A stretch of DNA of 64,000 nt from Schmidtea polychroa. Its lineage: Eukaryota. The notes below the pieces were generated by a model that was given only the letters and a program-made list of their open reading frames with translations, did no database searches and was not told the DNA's origin. The stretch lies in the NCBI GenBank assembly GCA_044892525.1, contig CM097885.1, forward strand, positions 10,108,001 to 10,172,000. Direction: 5' to 3'. Made by a program: the position numbers and the translations under genes. Shown piece by piece: positions 9,300 through 30,916 of this stretch (the first letter of the stretch is position 1; every line of letters begins with the position of its first letter).

Positions 9300-9815
9300 G
9301 GCACCAATATTCGGTGTTTGCTGATTTTTCCTCATTCCGCTTGATTTACCCGATAAGTAATGACACTAGTTGCCTCAATGGAAATTCAGGTGTCCTGGTA
9401 GGGTCGGTGCTTAGTAAGTTTCCTTTATTTTTCCGCGGTATATAGTTCTTTGAGATTTTTGCGCAGAGTTCGACTATTATTTTCATTATTCATTTAGCCT
9501 ACCTTAACTATAGATTTCTGAAACGTTGCACTCATGATCTCTGCCCAATCTGCTCTAGTTCTTTCTTTTAATGATGTATTTATATAATCTTTTTTCGTCC
9601 TGAATTGACGTTCTATCCCACCATTAGTATTGGGGTGATACGGACTCGAAAAGCATAGTTCAATTCCCATTGAATTTGTAAAATCTTTCATCATCTTAGA
9701 TTCAAATACCTTTCCACAATCTATGTGAGTCTCCTTTGGTTCTCCAAACCTAACATACCATTTCTGTAGAATTGTTTCCTTCACCATTTCTTCATCTTGT
9801 TTAGCGACAGTCGTC
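9300..9815 (-). mobile_element. Ty3/gypsy integrase core fragment
   Basis: ORF 9494-9787: WYVRFGEPKETHIDCGKVFES...SSPYHPNTNGGIERQFRT (rve integrase motifs). Confidence 0.85.
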
Positions 9816-10312
9816 AGAGAGGATCAGAGGAACCTTGGGAGAAAGTGTATGTTGATATATCTGGCGTGGAACAACAAAAACGCCTCTAGTGGAACAGCAG
9901 ATTCGTGTACTGCCGTGGTTGAGTTAAGCTCAAATCGCAAGAGAGAATGTTCGACTAATTTTAGTCTTGCCTTTGACTACTTTGAGTATATTATCAATTA
10001 AATCAACGACAACTAAATATGGAAATGAATGCAAAATAGTCATTCTTTTCATGATCAGTGCCTTTAACAATGCATTAAAAAACGGAACACTACGATGGCT
10101 TTTTACTTCGTTTACTTATTTAATCTTTTTAGTTGGAATAGGTTTTGGAATTTTTGAAATGAGATTCATTGATGGAAAATTTTCTGTAACAAGTATTTTA
10201 GGAGGTGTATAACTCGTTTTTGGTGAAACTTTGAGTTGAATACTCTTTTATTAATACTTTTTCTATGTTTTCTAAGACTTTTGCCTCTCGCTTTCAAAAA
10301 CAATCATGGTTT

Positions 10313-10907
10313 CAACTTTGTTTATAAACTATTGACCCGTTTTCTTTGAAAATATCTGTCTTCACTCGCAAATTATCACTGTTGTGTGACACTGTTATGT
10401 GAAATCAAGAAATATATCCATGAGGTTGTTTCGTAGCATCTTGAAATGCATTTATCAGAAAACTAAGATTATTTGAATACGCCTGTCTTGCAAGAAAATC
10501 AATAATTGTTGCATCTCTAGGATTTTTAAAAACAACTACGTATTGAACATTTAAGTTACGAGTTTGATGTGGACCTCCTTAATGAAACAAATTTTGAGAT
10601 ATAAATATAACAGTTCCACCAATGTGTCCACTGATTTTGGTTAATAAATTATTGAAATTTATTAAATTAAATTTTATTAAATTAAAACTTGTTATATTAA
10701 AATTTATTGAAACCTTTACTGTTTTCATATTTTTCAATTTACAGAAACTATCGTGAGTTAATCCATGTTCTTCATCAGCACCCCGATGCCAATAAATATG
10801 GTTAAAATTTGATTTGAATAAATGTGATTTTAGTAATTTGCAAACAAAGTTTTTCCACTACCAATTGGTCCAACTGTTTGATATACAGCATCATTTCTTA
10901 GTTCCAT
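10313..10907 (-). pseudogene. A32/FtsK-like DNA-packaging ATPase of Polinton type, frameshifted
   Basis: Manual translation: MELRNDAVYQTVGPIGSGKT (Walker A) ... VIFISQNLFH*GGPHQTRNLNVQYVVVFKNPRDATIIDFLARQAY ... FQDATKQPHGY. Confidence 0.85.
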
Positions 10908-11016
10908 TTTAATATATATTTAAAAATGAATATTGTTTATATCGTAAAGGATAAAGATGTTTTAATTACTCTATTATAATATAAAAATACTCAATTTTAA
11001 TAAGTATTCATTACAT

Positions 11017-11440
11017 ATGTTGAGAAATATTAATTATAGAGGTCGTGTGTCTTTTGGAAACGATCGGAATGATATATTTTTCCAAGTGTAAACCACAACA
11101 ACATGTTAACAAAACTGGAAAATATACTCCCATATTTTTCAAAAATGGTAAATGTCGTATAATTGGTTGTAAAAAGCCTATCGAATTGGATAATTTACAA
11201 TATAATATCAAAGATATTCAAGTTCAAAGTCTTACTGTAACTACTAAGGTTGAACAATCTATTAATTAGAATAATTTAGCAAAGTTATTAGATGGAGATT
11301 GTACATATGAACCTGAATTATCCTCTGATATGTGTTAAGCCAAATATAACCCACTGTGTGTAAATAATTTTTTATGTAGTGAAACAGTTGTACTAGGTAT
11401 TAAAAATTTAGATTTTCATACAATTTTGAAGGAATTATAA
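11017..11440 (+). pseudogene. TATA-binding-protein-like gene, disrupted
   Basis: Two TBP-like half repeats: YTPIFFKNGKCRIIGCK, then IQVQSLTVTTKVEQSIN*NNLAKLLDGDCTYEPEL; contains a frameshift and stops. Confidence 0.65.
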
Positions 11441-12978
11441 ACGATGTAAAGGATTTGATTGAATCTTTAACAATTTCTACGAGTATAAGTAACGAGGATT
11501 TGCTTGAATATTTATTCAATAATTACTGAAATTGATGGTAATTTTGGTTTATTTTAGGTTTTTTATTTTGTTTAGAAACTATACTGCAGGTTTTGATTGA
11601 TAAAATTGAAGATTTCTATCCGAATTTGAACAAATACTTGATAAGTTGTGCTCCAGAAGTTGTGTTTTACAGAATTTATGAAATCACTGGAATAAATGTT
11701 ATAGAATTAGTTCATATTGATCATTTCTACGATTACATGCTACACTGATGATGTTGAAAATTGTGATTTTTGTACAAATAATATACGAGATACTAGTGGG
11801 AATAATAATTGTACCTGTTTTGTTAATCTACAGAAATGAGAAATAATTCATGTGCTACTTGCAAAATTGTAAAAAATCTATTGTTGTAATAAAAAATAAA
11901 ATATACATGTATAAAATTATATTTGTTTTGTGATACAATAAATCATTTCGAAATTTGTTAATTAGCACAAAGTATATTAGTTGATCACGTTTTGATCATG
12001 CCTGTCAATTGAAACCTTGTTTACAGTGGAATTAATATAAATATCTGGTTCAAATCATTACTGATTACACCTACAAATAGATTATCAAATTAAAAGTTTG
12101 TTGTTCATTTCAAATATTCTATTTAATTGTTTTTTAATTTAGGAGTATTGAATAGGAAAAATGTTGATTCCGCTCAAGAATTTGGAAAACGGAAATTTAA
12201 AGAGGTGACATTATCCTTGGAAACATTATTCATTGTTCGAGTAAATACAAAAAAGCCAGTAGAACTTTTACAATACAAACTAGATTATTTGTATTGTCCA
12301 ATTTCTTATATATTTAAGGTAAGTTTGTATAAATTATTTTGGATTTTATTTTTGCGAATCAGTAACTCTGGAAAAGTTTTTTTTCCAAAATCAAGTTCGA
12401 CCATAAGATCATATTGGAACAATTTTTTCAGAGAATGAACGAAAATATGGAATTCAATGAAGAAGAAATGTTTATCAAATGCGATTTGGACGTAATTCCC
12501 AATGGAGAGAAGATGAGTAAAATAACTTTCATGGTTACAGTACTCATTCAAGGATATAATGTAAGCAGAGACCAAATCAAACCAATTTGGAAGATTATAA
12601 AAGCCGAAGAAAAGTTTGACGACGATCGTTGTATAGTTTGAATTTTATTTTAATAAATCTTTATTAGTCTTTTGTGTTTTTTAAATAATAATGACATAAC
12701 TTTTATAAAAACAACTAAATCAAGTTTTAAATTTATTAATTATCACATGTGCAGTTTTGATCTTTACGATTTCCTTTCATAATGTAAGATGTATTTATAT
12801 AAACTATTCATATTTATAGTATTTATATTTTATTGTTTGAATGTTGAGGTATGTTGAAATTGATTGTTGAAATTGTACGAAATATTATTTGGATTTTAAT
12901 TAATTCCCCAGAAATGAATTAAGAAAATACTTTGTTTCAAGTTCTTTTTAAAGGAGGCGAAACTCAGTGATAATAATG

Positions 12979-14562: not shown

Positions 14563-16105
14563 TACGGTTTATGAAGTAGGGGCACTCGATCTTGTCTGTC
14601 TCCACCAGTTACTCAGGCTTGACACGTAAATCTGGATAGGGGCTTCAAGCGGCTCACAAACACTGTGCGTTTTTCGCCGGATTTATATTGCCTAACCCTA
14701 CGGCGAGGCATCCTAAACAACTACCAGATAAAGGGACTTTTATTCTTTACTACAAGGGACTTGGAATGTAGACCAATCGTCCACCGTAAACACTACTTTA
14801 ACATTGGAACAGTCATGTGTTTCAGACCAGTGTCTTCAACGAATATGGAAATTGGAACTAAAGTCGACACCACGCACTATATAGTCGCGAAGTCCAGCTA
14901 AGCGCCTTTAGGGACAAATCATCACATCATGCTTGGTGAGATTTATTCTCAACAAGCTCTCAAAGGAGCCTCATCCACTTGGTACTTACCTGCCTTCTCA
15001 TAGTTTCTGCTATAAAGATTCTCGTTGTCGTTGATGATCTGGACGTCCAGAACCATCGCTTGGTTGTCTTTAAGAAGAATAAGATCCGGTTTGCGGTAGC
15101 TCTCCTTGTAGGGTATAATCGGTTCAACTAATGCCTCCCACCCTTTGCTCCGTGCCGCAGACACTATATAATTAACTAACTTATTGTGCCTTTCTATTCT
15201 CAGACCATACAAGCCTGGGCACTTTTGAGCAATGTGGTTAAAACTACAAGGGTCATCGCAACCGACTTTACATTTAAGCGGTCTTTCTGCGTGCATCATA
15301 CTGATCCTAGTTGGTGTATATATTAAGCTACTTCTTACTTTTACTGCATTGATGAATGTGCGACCAGTCATCAATTTCTCTCTTGCAGTTAACCATTTGT
15401 GTGCGCACTGCACTTCTTTGGCTTATCTTAGCCCCTTACCTACTAACTTACCATATAGGGCCATAGTAGTGGCTTCGTAAAATTGTTTCTTGGTGGCTAT
15501 TGGCGTCTCTTGTAAGTATAACGGTTTGTTCCACTTTGCCAACTGTGCTTTCACGGCTTCGTTCTCGGCCAGTGAGCTTATCCTCTCATCCCTGCATTCT
15601 TCAATTCTTCTAAGCCTATCACGCTTCGCAAATAGTACCTCTGCCAACAGGGCTGGCACACCCAGCCCCCCATTTTTTACCTTACTATTAATAAAGGATG
15701 AACACGTGTCGGTTGGCAGGTGTAACCATTTGCGAACCGCGCCTCTAGTCATTTTATCCAATACCCCCAATTCTGTGGTATCAGTTTCCCCCAGCACAGC
15801 CTCATGTAAGATACCTGGTATCAAAAAATCTCTTAGCACTTCTAATTTTTGTTGCGGCTTAATAGGTGCCTTCGTAATATTCTCTAGTCGTTTAGTATAA
15901 AGATTGGAAAGCTTTTTAGTTGTACGACCAAGGGCTCCAAATTGGATTTCCAAATACTTATAGTAATCGTCAGCTGACATGGCAGGGAACTCTTCCCCAT
16001 CAGCACTTACCTTTTCATTAGTGACCATCCATTTTTTCTGCTTACCGTCCCCTCGCCCTATAATGGAGGCACTCTTACTTGGATTTATACTAAGGCCATT
16101 ACATT
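14563..16105 (-). mobile_element. 5'-truncated R2-clade non-LTR retrotransposon (RT C-terminus, zinc knuckle, restriction-like endonuclease, ~300-nt 3' UTR)
   Basis: GLSINPSKS..GKQKKW, YKYLEIQFG, ITKAPIKPQQKLEVLRDFLIP, RKWLHLP..GGLG, CKVGC..HIAQKC..RH, RKPDL..VLDVQI. The ORF tail DLSLKALSWTSRLYSAWCRL* ends at ~14858; stops and frameshifts are present. Confidence 0.9.
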
Positions 16106-16109
16106 AAGG

Positions 16110-19100
16110 CTGGGCTCTACAATATTTCTTTTACACAAAGCATTAAAGAAAATAACAATTTACTTAGGATATTATTCTAGTAACAACTGGAAACTACCCA
16201 ACATAACTGGTGTCAAAAGTCCCTCGCATTCGACGATTTTCTTCAATCACTATGTCTTTCAGAATACTTATTATAGAAGTATAAAGGATAGTGATTCTTT
16301 TGGTTGAACACAGTAAGCCATATCCATGAACAAACTCATCTTTTGTTAGCACAGCAAGTAATAAAAAAACCATCAACAAACTAATAATGGCAACTGACCA
16401 AACAAATCCAACAAACATATCACAAACATCCAATAATGATGAAAACACACATGATGGAAAATACGAATTACAACTATAACTCAAACACCAACACGGATAA
16501 TACACACACCATAAACTCATTAATTAACCCGAGAACAAACATCCAAAACTACTTTAACGACGAAAATGGGACACCCCAAAAATGGCTAGAATCCGCCAAA
16601 TTAACCCTAACCTTATCGGAAATAAAGTCGACGAAAATGCTTTGTTCAAACATGATCACCCCACTCCCAAGTAGCAAACTGAACGAAATAGATGACCAAA
16701 TTGAAGAAATTGCAAAGAGAGAAGACCCGTTCAACAAACTTTGAAACGTTCTTACAAATAATAACAAAATCAATAGGAGGAAAATGCTGGAATCATGTCT
16801 CAATAATACACAACTTGACGACAATAAACCAACAGATTTCCTTCGCCAACTAAAACAAAAATTGGAGTACCTCCAAACAAATATAACTAATTCTGGATCA
16901 AATGAATTAGTAAAAGACTTTTTCATGCGAGGAATGCCGCCAGAAATAAGACGTATTCTCGCAGCCAGCAGCAATTCGGACGTAGAAACGTTAGCAGACA
17001 TAACAGATAAAATCAATGAAGAAATTTATCCACCTATATGCAGCACTCAAAACTACAACAGAAACAAAACAAATCACCACAACGAGCCAAGCAACAAAAA
17101 CACTGAACCAAACGAAACAACAAACCAACTAATAAACACTCTGATTAACAAATTCGATGAAATAATTGTCGAAAACAGAATTAGCCGAAATAGAAGAGAA
17201 ATACAACAAGCAAATTTTCAATTCAAACAAAAATAGAGACCTACACAACAGAAACAATTTCAACACAAACCAACCATCAGATAATCATAACGGACAAAAC
17301 TATAACCAATCATTAGACGGAAACAACAGGCAGAACTACAGCCGCAGACAATACCTAAACAATCACTACAGAAACCGGGTTAACTCCCCAAACCGATACA
17401 ACAACTACCGAAACAACAGCCTAGAAAAAGAATCAAAAATCCAGTTTATAAACAAAAACTACTGCTACTTTCACAACAATTTAGGTGACAAAGCATATAA
17501 ATGCACAAAACCCTGTGAATATCACAAAATAGAGCATAGAAAACTAAAACCGTCACTGTTAATAGCACCCACATTCAGTGACAGAAACAATACATTTTTG
17601 GTGCACACAAATAAAATTGACCTTCTAATCGACACAGGCTCCGTCATATCACTACTGCCTCACTACATGTACAAAAACGCAAAAAACACAGAAAAATCAC
17701 AAACAGTCGCAAATGGCTCTGGTATAAAAATATTTGGCCAGCACACACTAACCTTAACAATAAATTCACAAAAATACAACTGGTCATTCACAATCGCAGA
17801 GGTACAACAATCAATAATCGGAGATGATTTCCTAGCACACTACAACTTAATAGTGGACTGCAGAAACAAAAAATTAATTGAAAACCTCACATCAGACAAG
17901 AAAACCAGCAAGATTAAAACGACAAACATTTCAAAAGTTGACATCGGCGTGATACAAACAAGCACACCATATATTAAAACAATCAAAGCAATTGAACACG
18001 TTCCAAAAATAACTGCACTTCTGGCAAAATACGATAAGCTCAAATCACTCCACTGAACACGCCACCGAAATTAATGGAAACCCAATATACGCAAAAGTCA
18101 GACAACTAGACCCACAAAAGACAAACATCACGAAAGAAATTTTCCAGGAACTACTGGAAAACAATATAGTAACACATTCAAATTCAGACTGGTCATCAGT
18201 ACTAATGCTCAAACAAAAGGCAAACGGGAACTGGAGAGCTTGCGGAGACTACAGAATGCTCAACAAAATGACAGAACCAGATAACTACCCACTGCCGATC
18301 ATAAGAGATATAATAAATAGACTCAAAGGAGCAAATTTTTCTCAAAAATTGACCTGCAAAAAGCTAACCACCAAATTCCAATCAGAAAGGAGGACATTAG
18401 AAAAACAGCAATCGTAAGACCAATCGGCATGTTCGAATACAACCGAATGCCATTTGGTTTACGAAATGCAGCAGCAACATTTCAACGTTTCATGGATCGA
18501 ATCCTGAAAAACAACAAAAATACAATCGCATATTTGGACGACATATTAATAGTCAGCCCAAATAAAGAATCTCATCTAATAGACATAGATAAAGTGTTGA
18601 AAACACTAAACACAACAAATATCAAAATAAACTCCCGAAAATGCGAATTTTTGAAAAAAGAAATTAATTTTCTCGGGCACACATTAGAGTCGAATGATTA
18701 GACGAAAAGGGTACAACTCCTATCGAGAAAAAAATCAGTTCAATCCAACAATACCACTCCTATATACCAAATTGCAGCCAACTTTTAGCTACCCTAAACG
18801 ACCTAATAAAAACAAGACAAAACTGGACCGAGAGAGCAATCAAAAACTTCGAGAAAGCACAAACAAGCTTATCTCAAGCCACACTACTTGGATACCCGGA
18901 TCCAAAACGAGATTACAACTTAGCAACAGATTGTTCCAGATTTGCAATTGGAGCAACTCTTTACCAAGACAATGAATTTGGTAAAAAGTCTATTGGTTTT
19001 TTCTCTAAGAAATTAAAAATTTACCAAATAAGATATTCTACATTCGATCGAGAGCTGCTCGCAATTCATGAAGCCATAAAACATTTCCAACATCTACTAG

Positions 19101-21100
19101 AAGCAAGGAACTTCAAGATTTATACAGACCACAAACCTCTTACAAACGCGATAGAAATGAAAAATCCATCGCCTAGACAAATATGAAAATTAAAATTACA
19201 TATAACAATTCAACTGTACAATCAATTATATCGCTGGAGCAGCAAACATAGCAGCAGACATATTGTCAAGAACCGAAATTTTTGAAGTCGAAACAATCAA
19301 AAACAAACAAGTGGAAACACTACCAACAAAACATAGCCTAAAACTCGAACAAATCAACGATTGCTGGTACGACATCAGTAAAAAAAATAAACCAAGAATA
19401 CTCCCACCGAAAGAAAGCAGGAATAAGTGAATCTCAAAGATACACAACATCAATCACCCAGGAAACAAGGCCACATGCGAAATCATCCACAACAAATACA
19501 TATGGCCAAACATGCGAAAAGAAATAAAATATTTCGTCAAGACATGCAAAAGTTGTCAGATGAACAAAACTGCAAAAATAACTAACGGTTGAAAAAGTAA
19601 ATTTCCCAAGCAGCAAGCTTTCGAAACAATACACATAGACATAGTAGGACCATTACCACCAAATAACGAATACAAGTACTTACTAACGATAATAGACAGA
19701 AAGACAAACTGGTTCGAAATATTCCCACTGAAAGAAATATCCGTATAAAACCTCTGTAACAACATCGAACTAAACTGAATAGCCCGATATGGACAACCCA
19801 AAACTTTGATAACAGATCAAGGGAGACAGTTTGAGTCAGAACTATTTAATGCCCTATATAAAAAATATGAAATAAAACGTAACAGAACCACTTCTTACAA
19901 CCCACAAGAAAAAAGGGAAAATCGAAAGATTACATAGGAAACTTAAACAAAGCATTAGAACCAAAGAAAACGACAGAAATTGGCTCACCGAATTACCGAC
20001 AATTCTACTGGGGTTAAGGAACACCCCCAACTCAATCGACAACGACAGCCCTTCCTTTGCAGAGAATCAATCCTCCCATCTCTCGAAAACAAGACAACAG
20101 ATAATACAGAAACAAATAAACAAACAACTAACAAAAATAGCGGAAACATAGAAAAAGACCCAAAAGGAATTTTAGAAAGGAAACAAGACTCTAAATTCGA
20201 CGGAAAAACAGTACTAACAACAGATTGCATCCTAATAAAAAAAACCATTCACAAAAGGTTTTGAATACAAATACGAAGGACCATTCAAATTACTTGAAGT
20301 CAACAAAAACGTAGCCACAATAATCAAAAACAACAACAAGATGAAACTAAACATAAAGCGAATAAAACCCTACCACCAGAACCCAAAATACAAAACATAG
20401 ACTCAAACACAAAAAAAACACAACCAAACCACAAAAACATCACATTCAATTACAAACACTTAATAAAACTATTCGACAAAGACACAATAATCGCACCTCC
20501 ATACAAAAAACAATACACTCATGCCTCGCTATACGGCTGCTCTTTATACGGCTGCTCTTTATACGGCTTTTCGCTATAACGGCCTACTTTAATTACGGCA
20601 CTTTTCGATTTACGGCCTAAAATGTTTCGTTATACGGCCAAAAATCCTATTGAATTTATATGGAATTGTATCAAAATGTATTTGATTCGTTATGCGGCGT
20701 TTCGCTTTGCGGCCAACTTTCCTGGAACGTATCTAGGCCGTAAAGCGAGGTATGAATGTACAGTGAATGCATTAAATAAAAACTCACACAAACAGAACAC
20801 AAGCACAAACAAAAGCAGTTGTACAGTTTTTATTTCGTTGTAATTACGGAACAGTTCGTAATTTTTTTTTGTTTTATCCAGGTTGCATATAAAAAAGATG
20901 AAACAAAATAAATACAAAAACATACAAAAAACATACAAAAAAAATTAATAAAATGCTACCGAATGTTAATCTTCATGTTACTTTTTATATATGCATGTTA
21001 ACCTCCGATTTTAAAGGGGAAAGTTATGTACTATACTGTTATACTATTTTTTTTGTTTCATATGGATTGTAGTTTTAATAGTCGCGTGTTGCTTGTAGAA
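16110..21100 (+). mobile_element. Near full-length decayed Ty3/gypsy LTR retrotransposon
   Basis: LTR end ACATAAC then PBS-like TGGTGTCAAAAGT (~16208), gag with CYFHNNLGDKAYKCTKPC, protease LIDTGS, RT WRACGDYR / MPFGLRNA / YLDD, RNase H, integrase HIDIVGP, polypurine tract AAAGGGGAA and LTR start AGTTATGT at 21022; many frameshifts. Confidence 0.92.
20516..20758. mobile_element. Tc1/mariner-pogo-type MITE inserted in the gypsy 3' region
   Basis: TIRs CACTCATGCCTCGCTATACGGC / GCCGTAAAGCGAGGTATGAATG, TA on both sides, internal TACGGC repeats. Confidence 0.85.
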
Positions 21101-21699: not shown

Positions 21700-23103
21700 C
21701 CCGACAAGAGGGGGGGGGGGGGTTTGATGGGGAAAATACCCGAGGCCCCGGAGAAAAAATCTATCATGATTTAAATCACTTGATTTTTTTATGAAAAAAA
21801 TCATGATTTCAATTTGTAGGAACTATGTTCCTCTTTTCGTTGTGCGTGTGTGTGGGGTACGTCTGGAGAGTGTCCGTTGCCAAGATTGCTTTCGGAACCC
21901 CCGTTGCGAAAAAGTCTACACGGCACAAACGCATCTTGCAGTAATGGTAAGCACATGTGGCAATCTTTTGTTTGTCAAGAGTCAAGTGCTTGCTATCACT
22001 AGTTTTTGACATTTTGAGCCTGTTTCATTATTTACAAACTCTATTATTATTTAACTAAAAGAAAAATTACAAACATTAATAGTGTAGTAAGTGTAGTTGT
22101 TTGATCAATGTGAAAATCTCCAGGAAGAAGCGGATAAAGTAATCGTGTTTGTGAACTAACCCGAAAGTGAATAAGAAATTAACCTAAGCGTTGGGCTACA
22201 AAGCATTTCTTTACCGGTGCTGGAGTGCTGAAGTCGAATTTTCGATTATTAGTAATTAGCAGTCAATGGGAGACCGCCATCGACTCCGATATTCGTGACG
22301 TGGATGAATTAGAAATGACACCAAGTGACGAATTCAGAACAAATGTTTTCAATGTTTTCTTAGATTGTATTATTGGAAATATTGCAAGAAGATTTAATGC
22401 GGCTAAAGAAATTGATTCGTTATTTAATGTATTATGTTTATTTCATAACCTTAATGATGAAGAAATACAAAAGAAGTCCGAAAAATTACAAAAGGTATAT
22501 GAAAATAATATTGACCATAATCTTGGTGAAGAAATACTCCATTTAAAATCAATTTATGATGCCAATATACAAAACAAATCTCTCTCGCCCATTGAGTTAC
22601 TAAACATCATTAAAAAATGAAACTGGATGTATTGTTTCCCAACATAATAATAGCAATAAGATTATTTTGTACGATACCTGTAACCGTTGATGAAGCAGAA
22701 CGATCCTTTAGTGTTTTAAAAAGAATAAAAGATGTTTTGAGATCCACAATGTCACAACACCGATTTAATGATTTAGGAATGTTGTCGATTGAATCTGAAA
22801 TGGTTAAGAAAATTGATTTTCAAGACGTAATTAATTTGTTTGCTAGGCGCAAGGTTCGGAAAGCAACATTCTAAAAAATAATTTGTTTTTTGTACTTTTT
22901 TTGTAATTTTAGTTGTAAACGTTTTCATTTTTGTAAGAGAATTTTTGATGAATACATTGTTCCAATAACAATTAGGACATTTTTCGGTTTCCCGCTTCAT
23001 TTATAAATAGCCCAAAGTCCGAGGGGAAAATTTTTCTTTCACGCTATTGGCAGGGGCCCCCACAAGAAGTATATCCCCGGCCCCAAAATTCCTCTCGGCG
23101 GTC

Positions 23104-23300: not shown

Positions 23301-23952
23301 TGTTGGGTTATTATATATTGAAGTCTGATTCTGATTCCTCGTAGTCTTGATCTCAATTGATCAAATATGACCCAACACAGAATAATTTATTGAAACTCAA
23401 TCAAAATCTTTACAATATTGTTAATCACACTCACATTCCGCACCTTTTAATGATAACCTCAGGATGAGAATCCCAATGGGAAACTGTCTTTATTTATCCA
23501 TCAACTTTTCACTTGTTTATTTGTTTGTAAATTTCAGTTAGAGTTTGCTTCGCTCTCTTTGTTTGTTGTTTATTTAGTTCTTCGACCAAATCACAATTAG
23601 TTAATAGTGCTGCTTTATGCGAGTAGACTGTTTTGTAATTTAATTTTGTGGGACTGATTATTTAGGTTTGGGTTTCACAATTAACTACTAAATTATTTAT
23701 TTGTTTTTAATTAGTTTGTATTTTTTGAATATTTTTTGCCTGGGAACGCCCAATTAATGTTATATTATTATATTTGTATTCCTTTCATCATTAGTCATTC
23801 ATACATACCAATTTTCCCGGAATACATAATTTTAAAATTTTTGAAATTTTAATTAATTAATTAAAATTTAATTTAAATTAATTAAGTTTTTTATTTTGTA
23901 TATTTTTTGGCCCATTCAAATTTTTTTTAGTAACTTTATGAGAACCCTAACA
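23301..23952. mobile_element. Solo LTR
   Basis: TGTTGGGTTA...CCCTAACA termini; shares cccaacacagaataa.tttattgaa with the solo LTR at 53328. Confidence 0.6.
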
Positions 23953-24912
23953 ACTGTTCGATTTGCAATCATTTGTAATTTTCTTTCGACACCTTCATAT
24001 ACTATTGCATATACCGACTCCTCGGATGCTTTGTAACTTGACATAAATCAAAATCTGGAGCTAAAACAAGTAGAGAATGGAAAAAGAATCTTTAAAACCT
24101 TTTAATAACGATAAAACAAATATTATAAAAATAAAAAACTCTTTTATTACTTATTTTTATTCCCGAATTCCTAGGACGTCCCAAGTGCCGATGATAGCCA
24201 AGCAAGCTTAAAAAAAGTCTGTCATTAGAAATGGCATTGCATTTAAAACTTTTAATAGTAAAAAATTATTTTATTATTTTATGTATTTTAAACATTAAGA
24301 TAAAAAAAAATCAAAAATTTCAAGCATGTTAACATAAAAGTCTGCAAAAACTACAATAAAGAGATAACAAATGATATGCGAGTTCATTAATTTGAAATTT
24401 GATCAAATGTCAATAAAATATATTATTTTAAAGTACTAAATAATGTTAATAATAAAATTTGTTAGTTCTAACCAATTCATGATCAAATTATAATAAAAAT
24501 GTTCTCTTATATATTTATTGAATAATATTATTGATTTAGTAATATTACACACACTCACACGCAACGCACACACTCACAATAATCCTATTGGCTGGAATAG
24601 GGAAAGGAAATCATCTACGACATTTTTCTTGATGGAATTTATGATTAACATTTTTAATTGATTTTCAGGTAAGTAAATTATTTTCTAGTTTTAATACAAT
24701 AGAAATTTAGATTTTTTTCTCTTTGTTTATTAGAGCAAACAGAAAACAATAATTATGATAATTAATTATCATTAGAAATTTGTAGTTTAGTATGCATACA
24801 TTCAAATGATGTGTGCGTCCAGTCAAATACAGTAGCCTTTTGACGTATACATTATTTCGAGATTGATGTTATTTTATCAATATTCAATTTCGAAAATTTG
24901 TACGAATTATTT

Positions 24913-27900: not shown

Positions 27901-30900
27901 AACGTTTAATTAAAATCACCAAATGGAAAATTTTATTATAACTTTTAATTTTTATCGACAACATGGCATTTTTATTTCAATGTTATCTGAAAATCGACTT
28001 TCCTCTATCGAATGATGCATAATTTTTCCAATTTGGACCATTAATTCTTTTTAACTGTTATAATAAATTAAATATGGAAAATTATTTTAATTAAATTTAA
28101 TTGAGTTATTGAATTAAAATAAATATGAATTAAATCACACATTGAATCTTTTTTATGAACAAACAAATCTATGGATAATTATGTATTTTGATTGATAACG
28201 TGATTCCGTCATTTTTGACGGTTTATAGCTAGTTTTTTGATAAAAATCTACTAAAATTCAATAAAATTAATTAATGATATCGATTTAACCAGACATTTTC
28301 GATAGATTTAAATTGAAAAATATGTTTGGATAATTGAATTTAACGAGGGATTCGAATTTTCAATGCCGACTTCTTATGAATATTCAAGTGATCCCAAAAT
28401 GTTGAATTAACCCTGGATTGAATTAATTTCAATTATATATGAAGTTTCGTAGCATCTTCGAGTTAGTATATTGCTGTACAAGATCCAAATATTCGACTAA
28501 GCTCTGGGTTGTACAAATCTTCTGTCAGAATACTATAAAGATTTTTACTGATGTATTTCAAGTGCTAGTCTACTTGTTTAGCATCAAACTGAATCGTTAA
28601 TAATTACTTTGTCCTCTCTGATGGCGCTGCAATCATTTTGGCGTTCCATGTTTGTCTAGATTTGGATGAACACCATGAGTTTTAATGTCGGTGTACCTAT
28701 TTAAGTTTTTTTTTCCCAAACGTTATATCTCGTTTTGCAGTGACTTTTTGAAGAAAACAATTTTGTGAAGAAGCCGCAAACTTAGTTTGTTTTCCAATGT
28801 GACATAGTTCATTTAATTACAGTTTAACAGTATTTATCTCCATTTTATTATCTTTCTATCAATTTTATTCCATAACTATCAATTAAAAATACTTTTTTAG
28901 AATAAGAAAATATTTAAAGATAATATGGAAATATAATTATATTTTAGTGTTAATATCGTGTTATTTCGTTCTTATCCGTTCTGGAATTAATTAAATATTT
29001 TTTAAATATGACATAAACCAGGAAAACTTTAAATTACAGAGACCCTAACCCAATTGCTTTCAATAAGTGGCGTAATTTCAAATTCTGGGCACCCTTGCAA
29101 GATTTTCAAAATGCCCCATGGCAATCTGATAGGCAATAATTTTATATTTTTATATTATAAAAAACTATTTTATTAATTTATTTAAAGAAACTTTTTTAAT
29201 AAATATCAACAACGACGGCAGTCGGAAACTTGGCAATGAAACTAATGACGCCAGCATAGATCAAAGATGGGAAGTGAAACCAATTGAGTGAATTAACTGC
29301 AAATTCCAACGTCACCTGGCGATTATAATATGCCTTCGACTATGAGTCACTGCTCACTAGCTTAAAAGAAAGCCTAAAAAATATGCGCCGACCACACGTA
29401 AATAGTAATATTCTACATCATCTTCCTGCCTGCATTATTTATTGATTTTACAAGGATTATAAGGAGTTCAATAGGAGTTTCGGTTTCCGGCTTTCTGTTG
29501 TGCATTTATTAATTAAAATATTTCATTTTTCAGGCTTGAAAATGGAGCCCTTTTGCCTGGCCCCTCCGTATTTGCGGGCCCATAGTTACGGTATTGCTTT
29601 CAATGCTATGTTTAAAGCCATCCTAGATCCCATTTTATTTTACATTTGATAAAATCACTGTTTAAATGTTTATATAGTAAATTTATTATAAAGTATATCT
29701 TTATATTCAGGAATTACTAAACAAGTTAAACGAAATCCTCGAATGTTCTATACATCACGGAATAATGATAAATCCTAAAATGTTTTCATGTCAGCATGTA
29801 TTTTGTTATAAATGTATAAAAGACTACTTTAAAACCACTCAACCTATTTTAATTTGCCCGATTTGTAGAAGAAAAGAAAATATAGATGGAGTTGAAAATT
29901 TACCTCCGTCGTACACGCACAATAAACTGATGGACATATTAAAATTAAAACCAGAATCAGATGCTGATGATAATGACAGTGAAAACGATTCAAAATGGAA
30001 AATTGAAAATATTCAGAAAAATATGGTTAACAATTCTCATTATCAACAGGTTTATCCAAATGATTTTGAAAAGGTTCGTAACATTTTATCACAGAATAAT
30101 GAGAGTGATTTTTCATTGGTTACTGCAAATAACCTAAATTCCGAATCCAGTCAAATCGTATTCGTTGATTCGTGCACCAATAAAATTACTGTTTATTCCG
30201 CTTCCGGCGAATCGGCTTTCTCCATTTACATTGACAGTGAAATTGTAATTCCTCGCTATATTCGAGTCATTGACAACAGTTTATATCTTACAGGCAGCAT
30301 AAAATATGCCAATCAAACAGTTTCTGTTTTTCTTCAAAGTGATTTCCTTGGTAATGTCATTGAAAAATCAAAATTTAATATAGCCGACTCTTCCCCGTTT
30401 TTGGGATTCGACTTCAACGAATCTAAGAACTTATTCTACGTTTGCATGCCTGAAAATAAAACGATTCAATTATTTGATAGGTTTCTTGAAGAATCTAATT
30501 ATTATATCGATACCCATGAAAACTCACCGGAATTCATTGCGTTCAGTGAAAAGGAAAAACAGCTCTATGTTTCTTGTCCGCTTAATCGACGCATTTTGAT
30601 ATTGAATTCGGAAACTTATAAAACAATTTCAACTGATGAAATCGTGCCAAAAATGATTTTCGTCACCGATGATGAGAAAGTTTTATTTCTCGATCAGAAA
30701 GCGAACAAAATTATTTGGATTAAAAGGATAAATGATCACTTATTACAACACCAGCTTGATTTGACGTATTTTCGAAAAGATTTACAGATTAGAACCTTTT
30801 ATGCTTTGTCTTTATCGATGATTGTTATTGCTACCAATGATCAGATTTTTCTTTACCAATTAGATCAGAATTTATCAAGTTCAAATAGAGCTCCTACATT

Positions 30901-30916
30901 TTGTAATTTGTTATGA
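24913..30916 (+). CDS. RING-finger + beta-propeller (NHL-like) protein, TRIM-like E3 ligase paralog 1; predicted exons 24913-24933 and 29711-30916
   Basis: Main exon ELLNKLNEILECSIHHGIMINPKMFSCQHVFCYKC..CPICR followed by beta-rich repeats; acceptor ttcag at 29710; tentative phase-0 first exon MEDLTKS|gtaaga; AATAAA at ~30949. Confidence 0.85.
25132..26430 (-). mobile_element. hAT remnant carrying a nested hAT MITE (25504-26183)
   Basis: Minus-strand TLPVSTCTAERSFSPLKYLKSYLRNT; nested element with TIRs CAGAGCCGTAGCTA / TAGCTACGGCTCTG. Confidence 0.75.
27801..28232 (+). mobile_element. Non-autonomous Helitron (3' terminus clear, 5' end tentative)
   Basis: Hairpin CCGTCA-tttt-TGACGG (28206-28221) followed by CTAG|T at 28229-28233. 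Confidence 0.55.
29065..29596. mobile_element. hAT MITE
   Basis: Perfect 8-bp TSD CTTTCAAT (29057-29064, 29597-29604); degenerate TIRs AAGTGGCGTAAT / GTTACGGTATTG. Confidence 0.8.

Follow-up and report, generated by a model that had tools for sequence, protein, structure and literature searches.

A TBP-like gene carried by Polintons of Schmidtea polychroa and a candidate promoter box upstream of their virion genes

The stretch of DNA analysed here, a window of 64,000 nucleotides from contig CM097885.1 of Schmidtea polychroa, contains a dead fragment of a high-copy Polinton, and the interest lies in the family and not in the window copy (Table 1). The remnant is about 82–83% identical in nucleotide sequence to other copies by blastn, and according to blastn and tblastn of the window it retains no ends and no polymerase, integrase or capsid gene. 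With tblastn neither pPolB nor an integrase, protease or capsid gene belonging to this element turned up beside it, nor were terminal inverted repeats found in the remnant. What survives includes two divergently oriented pseudogenes, one for a packaging ATPase and one for a TBP-like protein. The first-pass annotation had placed their start codons about 110 bp apart, and with a minus-strand ATG at 10907 and a plus-strand ATG at 11017 there are indeed 109 bases between them; the two half-repeat motifs it had read in the TBP-like frame, FFKNGKCRIIGCK and YEPEL, do stand in one plus frame. Its end point of 11440 has to be moved, the TBP-like gene reaching instead to about 11529. In the window this gene is broken by frameshifts near 11051 and 11425 and by stops at 11267-11269 and near 11338, and its longest open piece (81 aa) scores 78 bits against the family profile and matches no Pfam family. 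The ATPase pseudogene contains an AT-rich scrambled stretch near 10660-10715. In open copies of orf179 the product has a C-terminal hydrophobic segment of the GGFIGALIP type and is possibly a pX-like virion protein, and a search of the Atlas with orf146 gave no usable match.

Table 1. Features of the Polinton remnant and other decayed or open frames in the 64,000-nt window
Feature	Position	Strand	Basis or remark
Degraded Polinton remnant, ~2.7 kb	9954..12689	.	blastn to loci L002, L018 and L019, plus tblastn
Broken remnant of 'orf179', a conserved ~170-aa basic ORF 3' of the ATPase	9955..10307	-	blastn; tblastn 60% over 10002-10217
TATAAACA box within the final codons of the ATPase (Y-K-Q), upstream of orf179	10319..10326	-	sequence; position conserved in relatives
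A32/FtsK-type packaging ATPase pseudogene	10312..10907	-	several frameshifts and stops; open copy matches PF04665
AT-rich divergent intergenic region, 109 bp	10908..11016	.	sequence
TATAAACA box, candidate late core promoter	10934..10941	-	ATAAAC begins 33 nt upstream of the ATPase ATG
TBP-like gene, pseudogenised in the window	11017..11529	+	170 aa and open in other copies
Broken Cys-rich ORF, 3' of the TBP-like gene	11489..11875	+	tblastn; no Pfam match
Piece of the 'orf99/orf146' gene	12381..12632	+	near the TBP-like gene in 21/80 metagenome loci
Possibly another scrap: Polinton major capsid C-terminus	23949-24118	-	weak tblastn match, E 5e-4; only capsid-like match in the window
Decayed Gypsy-type integrase piece	9494-9823	-	by eye
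Decayed non-LTR (R2-like) piece	14949-16103	-	by eye
Decayed Gypsy gag-pol	16745-20150	+	by eye
Decayed hAT-like transposase end	22183-22874	+	by eye
411-aa single-exon open frame, RING and beta-propeller, TRIM/NHL-like	29681-30916	+	by eye

A DNA search of the genome returned 3258 first-look candidates; the 40 that were scored proved, the window itself aside, 82–84% identical. In each of 11 further copies retrieved the TBP-like frame was open, and one natural open copy of 170 aa matched PF00352 above the cut-off in two stretches (E 9e-15), so the frame is not a product of chance. The ATPase of the open copy matched PF04665 (Pox_A32, E 1.1e-7), an rve integrase (PF00665, E 7e-9) is encoded two genes from the ATPase in locus L002, and sibling copies have an adenain-type protease (PF00770, E 7e-7). 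A structural model of the major capsid protein (pLDDT 79) matched the capsids of iridovirus, PBCV-1, mavirus and Sputnik (E 6e-15 to 6e-10), identifying it, at the level of the model, as a double jelly-roll major capsid; the putative minor capsid gene, which has no Pfam match, was assigned by position only. Inverted repeats of 0.18–1.1 kb, 93–98% alike, bracket the genes in four of five loci inspected, and the target-site duplication of Polintons/Mavericks measures 6 bp. Matches to PF03175 (PolB) occurred in the same stretches as the TBP-like gene in five of five loci inspected. These five loci of the genome, chosen by PolB alone, thus offered no controls devoid of it. A genome search with PF00352 gave 2998 candidates, 150 of them scored. 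At least six divergent Polinton families of the genome have the gene, three plus another three at 51–65% identity. The Polinton association proposed in the first-pass annotation is therefore borne out by sibling copies, in which pPolB, integrase, ATPase, protease, double jelly-roll capsid and terminal inverted repeats accompany the TBP-like gene.

These elements show a number of other features. The integrase frame has an insertion between its QTDLG and KEFYN motifs (L002:~486-560, L004:~420-520), in most copies an ATT repeat of varying length, that resembles a short intron or an in-frame microsatellite, and no matching splice joint was found among those listed. Contigs from presumed-RNA runs cover the TBP-like gene in one run, in which RNA is indistinguishable from DNA. 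The putative minor capsid gene is tandemly duplicated in two families (L172:6455-8495, L072:5610-7684). Accessory genes include a RING-finger (PF13920) and, by eye, a ubiquitin-conjugating-like ORF (L021:3719-4393, L172:4329-5474 region of L179, L072:225-722). PolB genes also occur as inverted pairs with no other genes nearby (L166:2676-6283, L167:963-4573, L025/L026 region).

Outside this genome, the TBP-like gene is widespread and is a conserved part of one branch of Polintons. A single-protein search gave 102 relatives and a profile search 512 matches, the best 120 of which were listed, and a metagenome scan confirmed 171 stretches, 80 of which were kept as loci. An ATPase, integrase, capsid, protease or PolB gene was also present in 38 of the 80, the remainder being mostly short contigs; the integrase was found in 19 and PolB in eight. 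No phage record matched the TBP-like protein or the ATPase. One Polinton contig with the gene (locus L144, JANOGQ010000345.1) is filed in a bacterial metagenome bin and is probably misbinned. The 'Archaea' labels on the nearest Atlas clusters were rejected as a sign of transfer, those clusters having only 1–9 members each. The head-to-head arrangement of the TBP-like gene and the ATPase, to which attention had first been drawn, is real in the window and is not conserved: of the 27 metagenome loci that have an ATPase, just 2 have it on the strand opposite to the TBP-like gene, and in one Polinton family of the genome the TBP-like gene is placed elsewhere. The layout was accordingly rejected as a functional link and is regarded as incidental or local.

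The AlphaFold model of the TBP-like protein has a pLDDT of 93.9 and gave 44 Foldseek matches in the PDB at E≤1e-3; among the matches listed, all were TBPs. Residues 1–152 of the model superpose on residues 66–240 of yeast TBP with a Z of 13.0 and an rmsd of 2.7 over 150 residues, at 21–26% identity to solved TBPs. The resemblance to TBP suspected from the sequence of the window thus holds for both Pfam and structure prediction, and the protein has the two-lobed, two-repeat saddle fold of TBP. Residues were counted in 181 non-redundant members (213 before near-duplicates were removed) against 124 canonical TBPs, with yeast numbering taken from a 240-aa yeast-like reference. F116 (99%), F190 (98%), F207 (99%) and P191 (91%) are kept, as are, at the sequence level, the glutamates of the TFIIB stirrup, E186 (96%) and E188 (99%). 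By contrast with canonical TBPs, the family has fixed changes at V122R (97%), T124M (98%), N159S (94%), V161T (85%), I194R (93%), V203C (90%) and L205N (99%), and its DNA face has acquired fixed polar residues. The F99 loop has no Phe in 177 of the 181 members, which leaves three of the four intercalating Phe. N69 is kept and V71 has become Asn, both read from the structural and tree-alignment register since the first ten residues are misaligned in the 181-member count. Judged from these alignments, the family lacks several traits of canonical TBPs: four Phe, the paired Asn, a hydrophobic concave face and, in the short subclade, a full N-lobe H2. In yeast TBP, changes at I194, V203 and L205 allow binding of TGTA, an altered specificity, and it is the 3' half of the box that the N-lobe touches (PMC1636458). 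The second Phe pair intercalates at box positions 7/8 (PMC1935006), the C-terminal stirrup glutamates contact TFIIB, and TRF2, having lost its intercalating Phe, does not bind TATA (PMC10005294).

The family divides into two subclades. In the short one (168 rows, including the window family) the H2 region has a median of 14 residues against 27 in TBP, and the model shows no helix after the strand at 45–51. The long one (13 rows) has a median of 23 residues in this region and the same DNA face: V122R, T124M and L205N occur in 13 of 13 of its members and in 161–167 of the 168 short ones. Estimates of dN/dS were 0.09–0.35 in eight between-family pairs, rough values given that dS is saturated, and 0.18 and 0.73 in two near-identical pairs. 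On these estimates the gene is under purifying selection.

In a quick IQ-TREE analysis of 74 rows, which also took in 6 host paralogues and 21 eukaryotic, 7 viral and 4 haloarchaeal TBPs, the 36 Polinton rows formed a single clade (SH-aLRT 100) on a stem of 1.48. This clade, drawn from many samples, stands apart from the six host paralogues. A recent retrocopy of host TBP, one of the outcomes that would have refuted the first-pass interpretation, is ruled out by this separate long-stemmed clade together with the 21–26% identity to solved TBPs; set against host TBP/TRF and viral TBPs, the protein shows no retrocopy-like nesting within host TBP. In AU tests on a 39-row subset, grouping with host TBP (p 0.48) and grouping with the divergent TRF-like paralogues of the host (p 0.18) were both not rejected. 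We claim neither a root nor a donor, since the trees were quick, the archaea were halophiles only and the viral TBPs were few. The host itself has at least six TBP-family loci (L033-L042): one canonical and intron-containing, two related paralogues, and three that are divergent and largely single-exon.

Because the residue pattern of the TBP-like protein predicted a DNA word, one was searched for. ATAAAC was the top 6-mer upstream of the ATPase, in 26 of 29 genes that are only 35–75% identical against 2.2 expected, all at −31 to −49 and none antisense. In sense orientation and within 130 nt it preceded 98 of the 112 non-redundant starts collected for seven genes of the virion module, compared with a mean of 11.9 and a maximum of 23 in shuffled controls, a significance that is overstated in that orthologous upstreams are not independent. 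It was found within this distance of all 31 ATPase and all 13 major capsid starts, and of the putative minor capsid gene (15/17), orf179 (14/17), the integrase (12/17), orf122 (9/10) and the protease (4/7); exonuclease-like genes had it in 10 of 13. Fourteen of the 112 virion-module starts are without the box, and antisense copies numbered 3 against 7.7 expected. Many boxes lie 70–130 nt upstream, inside the previous coding region, and the start codons themselves were assigned by homology, as a guess. The base 5' of ATAAAC is T in 72, C in 31, G in 4 and A in 2 cases, and the flanks give YATAAACR, in which the C at position 7 is near-invariant with no leak to A or T. Members of the long subclade (L118, L122, L124, L128, L130, L136 and others) also carry a YATAAACR-type box. 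As this subclade keeps most N-lobe helices and yet has the same DNA face and the box, a change of specificity probably preceded the shortening.

The box is distributed unequally among the genes of the element. Starts of the TBP-like gene, PolB and orf146 had ATAAAC in only 10 of 87 cases, and in the 70 nt upstream of the TBP-like gene canonical TATA-type words were present in 28 of 64 against 3 of 64 for ATAAAC. Two styles can be seen upstream of the TBP-like gene in metagenome loci: canonical TATA words followed by TCAT(T/A) 8–27 nt before the ATG, and a TTGTTTTA word about 45–65 nt upstream; TTGTTT occurs in 20 of 64. Eight Polinton contigs without a TBP match served as controls, being eight of nine loci from an integrase scan (L203, which is not a Polinton, was left out). 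ATAAAC preceded none of their 28 corresponding starts, and upstream of the ATPase all eight had a canonical TATAWAWR, at −34 to −46. These contigs form one clade and are incomplete, so that a TBP gene could lie beyond the sequence and the comparison amounts to about one independent contrast. Three distant virophage-like contigs from ATPase and capsid scans of viral contigs, a weak control, had no fixed box.

We consider it reasonably probable, at roughly 60%, that the protein is an altered-specificity TBP for YATAAACR late promoters that recruits host TFIIB and Pol II. Host-type promoters would drive early expression of the TBP-like gene, and of pPolB, 'early' and 'late' being assigned here from the type of gene. 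The protein would then sit on YATAAACR about 30–50 nt upstream of virion-module starts, among them those of the ATPase, capsid, protease and integrase genes, with a predicted preference for this box (TATAAACA, CATAAACA) over TATAAAAG/TATAAATA. Through its polar concave face it would accept a C at position 1 and require one at position 7, and TFIIB would bind to its acidic stirrup, whereupon host Pol II would transcribe the virion module. In cellular TBP the H1/H2 surface is gripped by TFIIA, Brf1 and Mot1/NC2, and the loss of most of this N-lobe surface may free the Polinton protein from them. The outcome would be an early-to-late switch made by one protein. Against this reading count the loss of F99 and N159, the 14 of 112 virion-module starts without the box, the many boxes inside the previous coding region, the box at 10 of 87 'early' starts, the weak use of such variants by cellular TBP and the thinness of the eight-contig control.

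The box could instead be a deliberately weak core promoter for host TBP/TFIID, and the viral protein a decoy or repressor that sequesters TFIIB or other partners of TBP, or that obstructs promoters. Host TBP does tolerate C7 and C1 variants at a reduced level: in plant protoplasts TATAAACG retains 27% activity, and in vitro CATATATA reaches at most about a third to a half (PMC10005294), and cellular TBP can thus use such box variants weakly. The TFIIB stirrup, the best-kept surface of the protein, would be needed by a TFIIB sponge as well, and the loss of F99 and N159 also suits a decoy. A decoy would not, however, need invariant new residues on its DNA face across two deep subclades, and the near-invariant C7 and the canonical TATA found instead in elements without the TBP gene fit a dedicated reader, which leaves the decoy unlikely, if still the main rival. 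The first-pass annotation had offered both a basal transcription factor of the element's own and a TBP mimic; the matching promoter box favours the former over a mimic or decoy, with binding at the level of prediction.

Binding to the box might also serve ends other than activation, the protein acting as a DNA-bending architectural factor while the element is replicated, packaged or integrated, or as a repressor that silences integrated virion genes. Sequence cannot separate binding from activation, and the box stands before the integrase and exonuclease-like genes too. Against this, its strict sense orientation and its peak at −30 to −50 from the start codons are the geometry of a core promoter, and the TFIIB-contacting glutamates are kept, so that we find such a role decidedly improbable. 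The forkhead consensus is RYAAAYA. ATAAACA fits it, and the box might accordingly be the site of a host factor such as a forkhead protein, or of another protein of the element, and have nothing to do with the TBP-like gene; no function is known for orf146 and other small ORFs. Yet GTAAAC, the other forkhead word, is not enriched upstream of virion-module starts (7 against 5.6 expected), antisense copies are not enriched, and orf146 was found only beside the short subclade whereas the box is found in both, which makes a different reader very doubtful. It is hardly credible that the motif is a poly(A) signal belonging to the gene upstream, or a side effect of codon choice, and that the TBP-like gene was captured from a host and is neutral: many boxes do coincide with the 3' end of the gene before (Y-K-Q, H-K-Q, I-N-K codons), but the preceding base is as a rule T or C, AATAAA is not enriched upstream of virion-module starts (25 against 28.7 expected), the box precedes the ATPase even in the head-to-head layout, in which no gene on that strand ends there, and the TBP-like gene is under purifying selection.

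If the protein is indeed an altered-specificity TBP for late promoters, it bears on the timing of Polinton capsid-gene expression and on whether particles form at all; according to one abstract, Polinton particles have not been observed (PMC8097293). A TBP devoted to this task, paired with its box in front of every virion gene, would provide direct evidence of a viral gene programme. The protein would in addition be an altered-specificity TBP of natural origin, changed at the positions of yeast TBPm3 and of the herpesvirus mimics, and would bear on how TBP reads DNA. The reading names one protein and one 8-mer for testing. We would give an even chance to the broader proposal that this branch of Polintons has the smallest known viral late-transcription system, consisting of one TBP of ~150 aa with a remodelled DNA face and YATAAACR, acting through host TFIIB and Pol II with no other viral factor, convergent with that of herpesviruses, a true early-to-late programme and an orthogonal TBP-promoter pair.

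With the Polintons/Mavericks (adintoviruses) described so far, the sibling copies share pPolB, rve integrase, A32 ATPase, adenain protease, double jelly-roll capsid and TIRs. Word searches of nematode, coral and PLV-framework Polinton surveys found neither TBP nor TATA, and one of a vertebrate survey found no TATA; the transcription factor named in those surveys is VLTF3. A 'TBP' gene does appear as a map label among MELD viruses with adintovirus-like PolB (Fig. 5 of Starrett et al. 2021, PMC8502044; preprint 10.1101/697771). The label leaves element and family unspecified, the portions of text consulted hold no structure, distribution or promoter analysis, and one supplement has 0 matches for TBP or TATA. 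This label aside, the openly accessible text searched on Polintons, Mavericks and adintoviruses contained no analysis of the gene or the box.

With cellular TBPs and TRFs (PF00352; yeast 1ytb/7o4i, human 1cdw, archaeal 2z8u/1mp9) the Polinton protein has in common the two-lobed saddle over 150 residues, the YEPELFP stirrup with both TFIIB-contacting Glu, and F116/F190/F207, P191 and G125/G216. It differs in having lost F99 and N159, in polar or charged residues at V71, V122, V161, I194 and L205, and in being encoded by a mobile element. Nucleocytoviricota and other large DNA viruses also have divergent TBP folds (Heterosigma akashiwo virus, Terrestrivirus and ASFV B263R-like; BFVD, E 2e-7 to 1e-4), at 10–21% identity, and the viral TBPs sampled fall outside the Polinton clade in the tree. 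Large DNA viruses with a TBP mostly encode their own RNA polymerase. A further parallel is KSHV ORF24, one of the TBP mimics of beta- and gamma-herpesviruses, which is likewise a viral TBP fold with polar residues at V122, T124, V161 and L205, and the TATTWAA late promoters of herpesviruses are likewise non-canonical TATA-like boxes before structural genes, the Polinton case being a correlation (PMC12529657). ORF24 has several domains, binds Pol II directly, needs five viral partners and keeps all four Phe without the acidic TFIIB residues (PMC12529657), whereas the Polinton protein is a bare core of 145–170 aa that keeps the TFIIB stirrup, has no partners identified and is devoid of the additional Pol II-binding and C-terminal DNA-binding domains. 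On the best reading of these likenesses and differences, the Polinton protein would work like a late-promoter TBP of the herpesvirus type, yet it stands outside that family.
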